Source: Escherichia phage ID62
Sequence record: NC_007824.1
Length of the DNA: 6,051 bases
Strand: one strand, 5' to 3'
A program made the translations under genes and the position numbers. Positions within the stretch are counted from its first letter, which is position 1. Each line of letters begins with the position of its first letter. The notes beneath the pieces were generated by a model. The model made no database searches. It was not told the DNA's origin and saw only the letters and a list, made by a program, of their open reading frames with translations. Shown here piece by piece: positions 26-6,051 of the stretch.

Positions 26-65
26 GAGACTCTTGCTTCAACGAAATGAAGTTGGAGTCTTTTTT
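26..65 (+). terminator. Imperfect 14-bp stem-loop followed by a T6 run, immediately downstream of the H stop; candidate post-H terminator and/or translational control element
   Basis: Pairs 26-32 with 55-61 (GAGACTC/GAGTCTT, one G-U) and 35-40 with 47-52 (GCTTCA/TGAAGT, one G-U), with T33-G54 as a further wobble, T34/T53 mismatch and 6-nt loop 41-46; TTTTTT at 60-65. phiX174 is known to have a weak terminator after H. Stem is AT-rich, so the call is tentative. Confidence 0.35.
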
Positions 66-3043: not shown

Positions 3044-3057
3044 GGGGCTTCGGCCCC
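3044..3057 (+). terminator. GC-rich stem-loop with UUCG tetraloop in the J-F spacer (mRNA-stabilising or weak terminator hairpin)
   Basis: GGGGC-TTCG-GCCCC, a 5-bp G/C stem closing a cUUCGg tetraloop, followed by AAGGA and the F start; no T-run follows. Confidence 0.5.
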
Positions 3058-3072
3058 TATAAGGATTTATAA

Positions 3073-4356
3073 ATGTCTAATGTACAGACTTCCGCTGAAC
3101 GTATTCCCCATGACCTGTCTCATCTGGTTTTTGAAGCAGGTAAAATTGGTCGCTTAAAAGTTGTTTCTTGGACTCCTGTTGTTGCAGGTGATTCTTTTGA
3201 GCTTGATATGGTTGGCGCTATTCGCCTTTCTCCGCTTCGTCGCGGTCTTGCTGTTGACTCTCGCGTTGACCTGTTCACGTTCTATGTCCCTCACCGTCAT
3301 ATTTATGGTGAAGAGTGGATTCAGTTTATGAAAGATGGCGTTAATGCTAAACCTCTTGCACCTGTGACTTGTTCGCGTGGTTGGGATAGTGCTCAGTATT
3401 TAGGTACAATCCCTTCCAGTACCCTTAAGGTGCCTAAATTTCTTCATCAAGGTTATTTGAATATTTATAATAACTACTTCAAAGCTCCGTGGATGGATGA
3501 CCTGACTTACGCTAACCCGTCCAATATGGAAGGTGAAGACGTTCGTTTTGGTGTTCGTGCTTGTAACCTGAAAACTATTTGGACTGCCCCTTTGCCTCCG
3601 GGTACTGAAACTTCTCATTCTATGAAGACTGAGGCTAACTCTATCGATATTATGGGTTTACAAGCCGCTTATGCTCAATTGCATACTGAGCAGGAGCGTG
3701 ATTACTTCATGACTCGTTATCGTGATATTGTTAATGAATTTGGTGGTAGTACTTCTTATGATGCGGATAATCGTCCTTTGCTTGTTATGCATTCTGAGTT
3801 TTGGGCTTCAGGCTATGACGTCGACGGCACCGACCAAAGTTCTCTCGGTCAGTTCTCCGGACGTGTACAGCAGACCTTTAAGCATTCAGTACCGCGATTC
3901 TTCTGTCCTGAACACGGCACTATGTTCACGCTTGCACTGGTCCGCTTCCCGCCAACTCACGAAATGGAGATGCATTACTTAGTTGGTAAAGAGGATTTAA
4001 CTTATACTGATTTGGCTTGTGATCCAGCTCTGATGGCTAACCTTCCTCCTCGTGAGGTTAATATGAAGCAGTTCTTCCACTCTGGCGATGCTAATGCCAA
4101 GTTTAAGATTGCTGAAGGTCAATGGTATCGTATGCAGCCTGACCGTGTTGCGTTGCCGTATAACTATCTTGATGGCTTCCCGTTCTATAGCGCGATTCCG
4201 TCTAGTGATATTAAGCAGCGTGTTTTGGTCAATACTGACAACTACGATGAGGTTTTCCAGTCTATGCAGCTTGCTCATTGGAATATGCAGACTAAGTTCA
4301 ACTGCACGATTTATCGTAATATGCCGACCACTCGCGATTCCATTATGACTTCTTGA
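3073..4356 (+). CDS. F: Major capsid protein F, 427 aa
   Basis: Length and position after J as in phiX174; AAGGA at 3061-3065 with 7-nt spacing; sequence resembles phiX174 F from memory. Confidence 0.97.
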   Translation: MSNVQTSAERIPHDLSHLVFEAGKIGRLKVVSWTPVVAGDSFELDMVGAIRLSPLRRGLAVDSRVDLFTFYVPHRHIYGEEWIQFMKDGVNAKPLAPVTCSRGWDSAQYLGTIPSSTLKVPKFLHQGYLNIYNNYFKAPWMDDLTYANPSNMEGEDVRFGVRACNLKTIWTAPLPPGTETSHSMKTEANSIDIMGLQAAYAQLHTEQERDYFMTRYRDIVNEFGGSTSYDADNRPLLVMHSEFWASGYDVDGTDQSSLGQFSGRVQQTFKHSVPRFFCPEHGTMFTLALVRFPPTHEMEMHYLVGKEDLTYTDLACDPALMANLPPREVNMKQFFHSGDANAKFKIAEGQWYRMQPDRVALPYNYLDGFPFYSAIPSSDIKQRVLVNTDNYDEVFQSMQLAHWNMQTKFNCTIYRNMPTTRDSIMTS

Positions 4357-4362
4357 TTATGT

Positions 4363-4376
4363 GGGGCTTCGGCCCC
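4363..4376 (+). terminator. Second copy of the GGGGC-TTCG-GCCCC stem-loop, in the F-G spacer
   Basis: Identical 14-nt hairpin to 3044-3057, again followed by AAGGATTT and a start codon. Confidence 0.5.
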
Positions 4377-4392
4377 CTTTAAGGATTTGATT

Positions 4393-4938
4393 ATGTTTCA
4401 AGTTTATGTATCTAAGCATGTTGCCCCGTTCACTTCTAAGAACCGTGCCTTTTCTATTTCCCCTGCCGCTAACCCGCAGGTTGTTAACTCTGGTGAGATT
4501 GTTGCAGGTCGCTCCACTTTCCGCGTTGCGTCTTCCATTGGCGCTGCTTCTAATGGTAGTGGTTTTGCGTTTGTTCAGATGATGGACCCCAATTCTCCTG
4601 ATTCTCAGCAGGTTTTCTCTGTTGCTGCTTCGCTGTCCTTTAGTGTTGACTCGAATTACATTCCTTGTGTTGTTCGTTTTGAGAGCACTGCTGCTCAGCC
4701 TACTGGTTTTAATATTGCAACCTCTGATTTCATTCCGGTTGAGGCTTCTGCTCTTTCTCCTCGTGCGCTTAGTGTTCGCGATTGTGTCACTGTTGATGTT
4801 AAGCCTCGTGCTGAAGGCAATAATGTCTTTGTTGGTGTGGTTTTCTTCTCTGCCTCCGCTAATGCTGGTAATGTTACTGGTGTTGTTTCGATGGCTCAGG
4901 TTGACCACGAAGTTACAGCTTTGCAGCCGCTTAAATAA
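4393..4938 (+). CDS. G: Major spike protein G, 181 aa
   Basis: MFQVYVSKH... aligns with the phiX174 G N-terminus (MFQKFISKH) and ends in ATVLQPLK-like TALQPLK; AAGGA at 4381-4385 with 7-nt spacing. The ORF track start at 4387 is TTG. Confidence 0.92.
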   Translation: MFQVYVSKHVAPFTSKNRAFSISPAANPQVVNSGEIVAGRSTFRVASSIGAASNGSGFAFVQMMDPNSPDSQQVFSVAASLSFSVDSNYIPCVVRFESTAAQPTGFNIATSDFIPVEASALSPRALSVRDCVTVDVKPRAEGNNVFVGVVFFSASANAGNVTGVVSMAQVDHEVTALQPLK

Positions 4939-5073
4939 AAGGCCGCCGCACTCCCGGTTAGATGCCTGCCCAGTGTAGGGCGGACCGAGCCTTACGGAGA
5001 TACCCGATAAACTAGGAACGCGGAAGGCGTAAGCCGCCTTCCCTCCTGCTAAGCCCAAAGGAGACTTTCAGCT
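4939..5073 (+). other. Structured G-H intergenic region; candidate primase-dependent complementary (-) strand origin and/or post-G terminator
   Basis: An 8-bp perfect stem GGAAGGCG (5022-5029) / CGCCTTCC (5035-5042) with 5-nt loop, plus a second hairpin CTGCCC (4966-4971) / GGGCGG (4978-4983); 135 nt non-coding, GC-rich relative to the rest of the genome. From memory, alpha3, St-1 and phiK place their negative-strand origin between G and H. Confidence 0.4.
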
Positions 5074-6051
5074 ATGATAGGTGCCGTTGTAGGTGGTATT
5101 GCTTCAGCCTTAGCCAGTGGAGCCGCTTCTAAGCTGTTTGGTGGCAAACCTGCCGCTCAAGCCGCTACTGAGTCCTCTGGCCTTTCCAATGGTCAAGGTG
5201 TTATTGGTATGGATAATGATGCCGGTATCCAGTCAGCTATTCAGGGTTCTAATGTTCCTAATGGTCAGATTCCCGCTCCCACTCAGACTGGAGGTGTTAT
5301 GGCTGATGCCAAGAATATGATTAAGAATGCCGGTAAGGATTTGCTTGATGGTGTCATGACTGCTGGTAGTGACCGAGTCAAGCAAGCGTTAGTTGATAAA
5401 TTGAGTGGTAATAATGCAAAGAAACAAGGACAAGCAACCCGTGATTACTTGGCTGCGGCCTTCCCTGAGCTCAATGCATGGGAACGTGCTGGAGCTGGTG
5501 CTTCCGGCGCCGGACTGGAATCTTCCGGTCAGGACCAACAGAAGGAGTTGATGCGTATGCAGCTGGATACTCAGAAGGATATTGCTAAGATGCAGATGCA
5601 GAATAATTTGCAGATTGCCGGTATTCAGTCCGCTACTTCTCGTCAGAACACAAAGGATTCTGTTTATGCTCAGAATGAGATGCTTCAGTACAATCAACGT
5701 GAGTCACAGGCACGCGTCGAGTCCATCCTCGCCAATACTGACCTTACGGCTAAACAAGCTACCCATGAAATTATGAGAATGGCTCTTACCCGTGCTCAGG
5801 AGACTGGTCAGCATTTGACTAATAGTCAGATTATGGCTTTGGAGAAGAAAGTTTATGCAGAAATCGGAAAAATTCATCAAGATACTCAAAACGCTCGCTA
5901 TGGTAGCTCTCAAGTTACTGCTACGGCGAAAGACGTTTCGAACATGATTACTGATGCCGCCTCAGGTTTTGGTGATTGGGCCTCTCAACAGTGGAATTCC
6001 TTCTTTAAGGATGGCAAGTCCAACGGTATTCCTCTTAACACTAGAAAATAA
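5074..6051 (+). CDS. H: Minor spike / DNA pilot protein H, 325 aa
   Basis: N-terminus MIGAVVGGIASALASGAASKLFGG and internal RDYLAAAFPELNAWERAGA, IAGIQSATSRQNTKD and VYAQNEML match phiX174 H from memory; AGGAG at 5059-5063. Confidence 0.95.
   Translation: MIGAVVGGIASALASGAASKLFGGKPAAQAATESSGLSNGQGVIGMDNDAGIQSAIQGSNVPNGQIPAPTQTGGVMADAKNMIKNAGKDLLDGVMTAGSDRVKQALVDKLSGNNAKKQGQATRDYLAAAFPELNAWERAGAGASGAGLESSGQDQQKELMRMQLDTQKDIAKMQMQNNLQIAGIQSATSRQNTKDSVYAQNEMLQYNQRESQARVESILANTDLTAKQATHEIMRMALTRAQETGQHLTNSQIMALEKKVYAEIGKIHQDTQNARYGSSQVTATAKDVSNMITDAASGFGDWASQQWNSFFKDGKSNGIPLNTRK

Follow-up and report, generated by a model that had tools for sequence, protein, structure and literature searches.

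A Conserved RNA Stem-Loop at the Head of the H-A Spacer of Alpha3-like Microviruses Is Predicted to Mask the Ribosome-Binding Site of the First Spacer Gene

The H-A Spacer and Its Three Conserved ORFs

The window, i.e., the whole stretch of DNA that was analyzed (6051 nt), is the complete circular genome of an alpha3-like microvirus (Bullavirinae, Alphatrevirus), linearized directly past gene H's stop codon. Gene H spans 5074-6051 with its stop codon at 6049-6051, gene A lies at 760-2244 on the + strand and starts at ATG 760, and genes D, F and G occupy 2504-2962, 3073-4356 and about 4393-4938, respectively. An H-A spacer of roughly 700-760 nt is a trait of the alpha3-like clade, unlike the situation in phiX174 and G4, and most GenBank records leave it without annotation. 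Our searches of the literature on the alpha3 H-A spacer found no description of the region, nor did they return transcript data (5' or 3' ends) for alpha3-like phages. Across bases 1-760, identities to 25 matching phage records range from 81 to 92%; MG945254 is the best match (92%), and the further ones include WA45, WA13, NC28, alpha3, St-1 and phiK. In the records of the relatives, the end of H directly adjoins TTGTTGACA. A set of 24 relatives was gathered from GenBank, IMG/VR, metagenome contigs and Logan/ENA assemblies. The spacer contains three conserved ORFs and, at its head, a control hairpin (26-61). This hairpin had originally been placed directly after H; it is the first one past the gene, but on the circular genome it lies 25 nt 3' of the H stop, which places it where the spacer of ~760 nt begins.

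ORF1 (66-434, + strand) encodes a conserved protein of 122 amino acids, annotated as hypothetical in the Lilleven record. Its substitutions are of the coding type, with variable columns by codon position amounting to 46/35/99 of 122. ORF2 (438-527, + strand) encodes a hydrophobic, membrane-type peptide of 29 amino acids that is conserved in all relatives, and ORF3 (524-700, + strand; 58 amino acids) has a GTG start overlapping the stop of ORF2, and shows a codon-position pattern of 15/11/32 variable columns of 58. All three are called as genes in the Lilleven record and by gene callers on metagenome contigs, and they are packed as if translationally coupled. A profile search with ORF1 matched only proteins of alpha3-like phages (identity at least 68%), while Pfam and PHROGs searches with ORF1-3 gave no matches. 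The AlphaFold (AF2) model of ORF1 is confident (pLDDT 88.5; pTM 0.80) and had no significant structural neighbors. The reading frame of ORF1 is intact in nearly all relatives, and judged from these sequence comparisons, ORF1 can be taken as a real conserved gene that starts at ATG 66. The frame is shifted in old alpha3 records (X60322, M25640) and in St-1, and it is intact in re-sequenced alpha3 (DQ085810.2). For the old alpha3 records, a sequencing error is the probable cause of the shift; the one in St-1 may be a genuine laboratory loss, which would mean that ORF1 is dispensable in culture. A metagenomic lineage whose hairpin is longer by 16-17 nt and has a different upper stem (L033, 1122-1665; L035, 1120-1665) carries an in-frame insertion of 32 amino acids directly past ORF1 codon 3, resulting in a product of 154 amino acids.

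A Stable Hairpin in + Strand RNA

Positions 26-61 (GAGACTCTTGCTTCAACGAAATGAAGTTGGAGTCTT) fold into a hairpin with a 5' arm at 26-40, a loop at 41-46 and a 3' arm at 47-61, all on the + strand. The structure given by RNAfold joins 26-33 to 54-61 and 35-40 to 47-52 around a T34/T53 mismatch and a loop of six nucleotides. It thereby reproduces the 14 pairs including wobbles of the original prediction, the wobbles being three G.U pairs (26.61, 33.54 and 35.52). The loop varies in both sequence and length among the relatives, with 16-17 nt more in L033 and L035. An ATG at 46-48 had been assigned to the loop, which is incorrect: only A46 is part of it, and many relatives have ACG at this place.

The minimum free energy of 20-70 is -17.6 kcal/mol (z -4.58), far from zero and equaled by none of 200 dinucleotide shuffles, and 26-61 alone reaches -17.1 kcal/mol (z -5.35). 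Among the distinct 40-nt folds of the genome (6051 + strand windows; mean -5.8, sd 3.2), the hairpin ranks fourth in stability. Its energy also exceeds that of the validated T_H hairpins of phiX174 (-12.8 kcal/mol) and G4 (-11.3 kcal/mol), at odds with the earlier view that its stability is modest. The fold is specific to + strand RNA, with -17.6 kcal/mol compared to -12.7 kcal/mol for the - strand and -6.9 kcal/mol for DNA (DNA z -3.0), and it relies on G.U pairs, including the invariant U33.G54. Rfam covariance models, run against the whole window at E-values up to 1, matched no family.

An equivalent hairpin folds in all 24 relatives, at -14.6 to -26.4 kcal/mol. The lower stem, in which GACTCT (28-33) faces GGAGTCT (54-60), is invariant in the alignment, and the upper stem is variable; most relatives carry an A53 that pairs up the T34/T53 mismatch of the window. 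In the ERR1302523 / ERZ17996440 lineage, this lower stem is topped by a different upper stem that is longer by 16-17 nt. By pair counting, 92% of cells are paired, compared to 41-54% when the partners are slid. Changes on both sides occur at three pairs, the covariation lying in the upper stem, and the observed covariation score is matched in 0 of 500 shuffles. Third-codon columns of the adjoining ORF1 offer a neutral yardstick, as 99 of the 122 vary among 16 genomes; given this yardstick, the 13 invariant non-coding columns of the stem are under constraint. What selection clearly maintains across the alignment is the hairpin together with its Shine-Dalgarno (SD) overlap, not a strong U-tract.

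Burial of the ORF1 Shine-Dalgarno Sequence

The fully paired GGAG at 54-57 (+ strand) is the SD sequence of ORF1. Its assignment to ATG 66 in the original prediction is confirmed. In the relatives, the GGAG is invariant (AGGAG in most of them) and is always situated in the 3' arm, 8 nt ahead of ATG 66 (24/24). The same site was annotated as ribosome_binding_site in the alpha3 record M25640 (1253-1257) from the 1980s. For RNA extending from the end of H, the predicted probability that the SD is unpaired is ~0, and the ORF1 SD has the lowest mean accessibility among the eight gene starts examined. The phiX174 precedent discussed below and the status of ORF1 as a real gene point in the same direction. 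It is therefore well supported, by comparison and by modeling, that the hairpin would mask the ribosome-binding site of ORF1, which was the core of the original prediction. The near-invariant TTAT (22-25) can additionally pair with the AUGA at the start of ORF1 (66-69); this pairing is seen in the predicted folds of some relatives, where it extends the hairpin.

Not every intercistronic hairpin of this genome is arranged in this way. The J-F and F-G spacers each contain an identical GGGGCUUCGGCCCC hairpin, and the AAGGA SDs of F and G are located outside that stem. Burial of the SD is a specific feature of ORF1 and gene A, as opposed to the free SDs of F and G. Identical GGGGCTTCGGCCCC hairpins with a UUCG tetraloop are present after genes J and F, at 3044-3057 and 4363-4376.

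Relation to the pA-T_H Module

In the H-A spacer of phiX174, the promoter pA and the terminator T_H stand back to back, with the -35 hexamer of pA (TTGACA) at 3927-3932 (bioRxiv 10.64898/2026.07.25.740675; Logel & Jaschke). The TATG (TRTG) motif of pA (3945-3948) lies one base upstream of a degenerate -10 hexamer, TTTCAT (3950-3955), and A3946G, which turns it into TGTG, is the sole change it tolerates (bioRxiv 10.64898/2026.07.25.740675). The T_H hairpin consists of GCCTCC and GGAGGC; its 3' stem is at the same time the ribosome-binding site of gene A (GGAGG, 3969-3973) and is followed by T6 and the ATG at 3981 (bioRxiv 10.64898/2026.07.25.740675). The annotated start site of phiX174, 3962, is the first base past the six G/C-rich pairs in which the 5' arm of T_H takes part. 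The G4 module comprises TTGACT at +4 to +9 past the H stop, an 18-nt spacer, TAATAT, a hairpin (34-53) with GGAGG, TTTTC and ATG 59. Given the phiX174 and G4 layouts, a terminator hairpin that buries the ribosome-binding site of the next gene is a known microvirus design.

The window contains a counterpart of this module directly ahead of A. The pA ortholog, TTGACA-18-TATATT (697-726, + strand), matches the consensus at 11 of 12 positions and is conserved in the relatives. The T_H ortholog (727-756, + strand) consists of a hairpin at 727-751, whose energy is -15.6 kcal/mol and whose 3' arm contains GAGG(G), the SD of gene A; T5 comes next, ahead of ATG 760 of A. This ortholog is laid out like phiX174 3956-3983 and G4 34-61. 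Conservation of the module (697-759) in the relatives is supported by covariation. In the viable isolate NC35 (L014, about 690-730), a deletion of ~29 nt removes the -10 of pA and the 5' arm of T_H. TTGACA thereby comes to adjoin the 3' arm, and the start of gene A is found at 730, not at 759, which raises the question of which promoter serves A.

The element at 26-65 is thus not the ortholog of the canonical post-H terminator T_H, as that ortholog is located at 697-759 ahead of A. It is better described as a second element of the pA-T_H type, paralogous or analogous, and represents a known design instead of a new mechanism. The likeness to the modules of phiX174 (3927-3983) and G4 (4-61) includes the location in the H-A spacer, a TTGACA/T -35 hexamer soon past the H stop (in G4 at the very offset of the window's 4-9), the SD GGAG(G) of the next gene in the 3' arm and, after it, a U-run and an ATG 5-8 nt past the stem. 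In phiX174, pA uses a TRTG extension and a degenerate -10 beside the stem, to which the candidate motifs at 23-26 and 28-33 would correspond. The element differs from these modules in serving ORF1 and not A, in its longer (14-15 pairs versus 6-8) and AU-richer stem, in a putative -10 that falls inside the 5' arm, and in a far poorer match of this candidate -10. No direct repeat or clear homology was found between 1-68 and 694-762, and the sequence similarity of 1-68 to the pA-T_H modules of phiX174 and G4 is modest (z 2-4.6 against shuffles); therefore, neither an origin by duplication nor common descent is claimed. As regards design, and possibly descent as well, the Bullavirinae pA-T_H composite has its second copy in this stem-loop.

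Hairpins that act as translational operators by sequestering an SD are known from, e.g., the RNA phage MS2 and many bacterial leaders. As in those, a stable local stem located just upstream of the AUG keeps the SD of ORF1 fully paired. The difference is that at 26-61 neither a ligand nor a protein nor a coupling partner is evident, and that opening is proposed to occur via the transcript start.

The Hairpin as a Possible Weak Terminator

A run of six T (60-65, + strand) at the end of the hairpin may form the U-tract of a weak intrinsic terminator. The run exists as originally described, but it does not follow the hairpin in full: T60 and T61 are within the stem and four unpaired T remain. Terminators were scored by hairpin energy and T-tail with modern energy parameters, and calibration on the T_H hairpins of phiX174 and G4 makes the score a relative ranking only. 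The d-score formula reportedly stems from d'Aubenton Carafa et al. 1990. On this scale, phiX174 T_H scores +27.6, the window's 26-65 and 727-756 score +8 and +7.2, respectively, and G4 T_H scores -2.4; a terminator scan of the window also picks up the 26-65 hairpin. The T-run is not conserved. It ranges from T3 to T6 in the relatives, often interrupted (ERR1302523 has TCTCATG), and the terminator score is positive in eight of the 24 and negative in about two thirds.

In phiX174, T_H blocks ~70% of transcription, and T_J, T_F and T_G block 20-40% (Logel & Jaschke). Because the known microvirus terminators are weak, weak termination (at 62-66) or protection of the 3' end is plausible at 26-65 as well, and a role as weak terminator or 3'-end stabilizer is only plausible. 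Like T_J, T_F, T_G and T_H, all weak terminators or mRNA-stabilizing hairpins, the element is an intercistronic + strand stem-loop followed by U residues, and its predicted strength is within their range. It differs from them in a U-tract that is variable or missing in the relatives, and from the J-F and F-G hairpins in burying the next SD, which those leave free. The idea of a post-H terminator thus finds partial support in the stable hairpin, the T6 and a score within the range of the T_H hairpins; the lack of a conserved T-run and of orthology to T_H speaks against it.

A Candidate Promoter Overlapping the Hairpin

Upstream of and within the 5' arm, a series of promoter-like motifs was observed on the + strand. 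A perfect -35-like hexamer, TTGACA, is found at 4-9; TTGAC is invariant (24/24) and the last base is A or T. After a spacer (10-22) in which most columns vary, a candidate extended -10 motif of the TRTG type, TATG, follows at 23-26; TATG or TGTG is present in 23 of the 24 relatives, this A-to-G change being the one that phiX174 pA tolerates, and phiK has TATT. From TTGACA to TRTG, the 24 sequences show no indel, i.e., the spacer has a fixed length. The candidate -10 itself would be the degenerate GACTCT (28-33) within the 5' arm, non-coding and invariant in the 24 relatives. It agrees with the consensus at only two of six positions (the A and the T at positions 2 and 6, respectively), and its distance of 18 nt to the -35 is also that of G4 pA and the pA of the window. 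T33 remains T, although a C would pair better with G54. The composite TTGACW-N13-TRTG occurs once in the window, compared to 0.07 expected. TTGACA alone is not significant, with three occurrences in the genome (all on the + strand) against 3.9 expected. The third of these (1685-1690, + strand) lies inside A, ~120 nt ahead of the B-frame ATG 1806; it was considered as a counterpart of phiX174 pB and rejected, as the positions do not correspond.

Transcription from this promoter would start ~7 nt downstream of the candidate -10, at A40/A41, where the 5' arm reaches its top. For RNA that begins at 40, no structure is predicted (-0.1 kcal/mol). A consensus promoter scan reported no promoter at 4-33; this carries little weight because the scan likewise misses the validated phiX174 pA. 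Since the -10 match is very poor, we regard activity of the overlapping promoter at 4-33, for which the motifs and the analogy with pA argue, as possible but on balance doubtful. Pairing to the invariant SD could by itself account for the invariance of the 5' arm, and the conserved TTAT (22-25), and with it the conservation of the TRTG motif, could instead reflect the pairing with the start-codon AUGA. The original prediction overlooked this possible promoter, and with it, masking of the ribosome-binding site would depend on where the transcript starts.

Interpretation and Alternative Explanations

The explanation that we favor, and hold to be somewhat probable, is that 26-65 is a conserved + strand RNA stem-loop that heads a three-gene accessory unit (ORF1-3, 66-700) occupying the enlarged H-A spacer, masks the ribosome-binding site of its first gene and is opened depending on the transcript start. 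RNA arriving from H would carry both arms, fold at -17.6 kcal/mol and lock the ribosome-binding site of ORF1. At the U-run, some polymerases may stop or the 3' end may be protected, the element acting as a weak terminator or stabilizer. ORF1-3 would most likely be translated from RNA that started inside the hairpin: a weak overlapping promoter (TTGACA 4-9, TATG 23-26, degenerate -10 28-33) would start RNA near A40, and such RNA, being devoid of the 5' arm, would have a free ribosome-binding site. This locally started RNA may end at the 727-756 hairpin, which would result in a self-contained unit of promoter, genes and terminator.

A simpler possibility, about which we have considerable doubts, is that the stem-loop serves only as a translational brake and RNA-stability hairpin without a local promoter. 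ORF1-3 would then be reached only by late read-through transcripts from H and expressed at a very low level, with TTGACA and TTAT serving other roles. Sequestration of the SD and conservation of the hairpin, both solid, are compatible with this explanation, as are the very poor candidate -10 and the negative promoter scan; TTAT (22-25) pairs with AUGA (66-69) in several relatives, and TTGTTGA can pair with the end of H. Nonetheless, a stem of -17 kcal/mol that cannot be opened would leave three ORFs under purifying selection nearly untranslatable, and the H stop, 25 nt upstream, is presumably too far away for a terminating ribosome to melt the stem. Moreover, the -35 position, the 18-nt spacer and the TRTG match those of G4 and phiX174 pA. 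That the element chiefly acts as the late operon's main and efficient terminator past H, its overlap with the ribosome-binding site being incidental, is improbable. It is indeed the first hairpin past H, a T6 is present, and the score of +8 is similar to the +7.2 of the second hairpin. Yet many relatives have a degraded T-run or none, whereas the hairpin and the SD overlap are universal, a better-conserved hairpin with T5 in a pA-T_H layout is located at 727-756, and microvirus terminators are weak even in phiX174.

Two further explanations dispense with a regulatory RNA altogether. The packaged form of the genome is + strand ssDNA, and the sequence can fold in DNA form too (-6.9 kcal/mol, z -3.0); on these grounds, the hairpin might be a viral-strand ssDNA element involved in complementary-strand priming, packaging or protein binding. 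This is very unlikely: the DNA fold is much weaker, and the three G.U wobbles, one of them invariant, stabilize RNA but not DNA. A role of 26-61 as complementary-strand origin was rejected, as the G4-type origin sits in the G-H spacer, where 4938-5062 is 79% identical to the G4 ori (E 4e-25), located in G4 between F and G. The G-H spacer (4930-5080) folds at -46.4 kcal/mol into very stable hairpins. We give even less credence to hidden coding, in which the hairpin would be a by-product of an antisense ORF or of an N-terminal extension of ORF1 from ATG 24. In the window, ATG 24 shares its reading frame with ATG 66 and would yield an ORF of 136 amino acids. It was rejected as the true start of ORF1, since between 24 and 66 the relatives carry frame-breaking indels (-2, -1, +1 and +16/17 nt) and the Lilleven sequence is ATG TGA; in addition, no SD precedes ATG 24, and no - strand ORF of at least 25 amino acids overlaps 1-104.

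Phage morons are autonomous inserts of promoter, gene and terminator that have been described for tailed dsDNA phages. The three-gene unit headed by the stem-loop resembles them as a clade-confined accessory block between two core genes, with a promoter-like site on one flank and a terminator-like hairpin on the other. It differs in that its flanks copy the virus's own pA-T_H design and in that the promoter activity is putative. A bolder extension of the favored explanation, which we put forward only tentatively and consider rather unlikely in its full form, is a moron-like early unit with a promoter at 4-33, ORF1-3 and a terminator at 727-756, in which the ribosome-binding site is gated by the origin of the transcript. 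With the promoter embedded in the terminator hairpin, locally started RNA would be devoid of the 5' arm and translated, late read-through RNA would be both terminated and translationally silent, and gating by transcript origin would be a general, so far unstated rule of the Bullavirinae.

Implications for Alpha3-like Phages and the Bullavirinae

The analysis yields a concrete and testable regulatory model for the alpha3-like H-A spacer, which may matter for quantitative models of expression and for re-designing microvirus model genomes. If gating by transcript origin is true, the same logic would account for the arrangement of pA, T_H and gene A in phiX174 and G4. If the overlapping promoter holds, it would explain why the terminator hairpins of microviruses carry the ribosome-binding site of the next gene: late read-through RNA could then not express the early or accessory genes.
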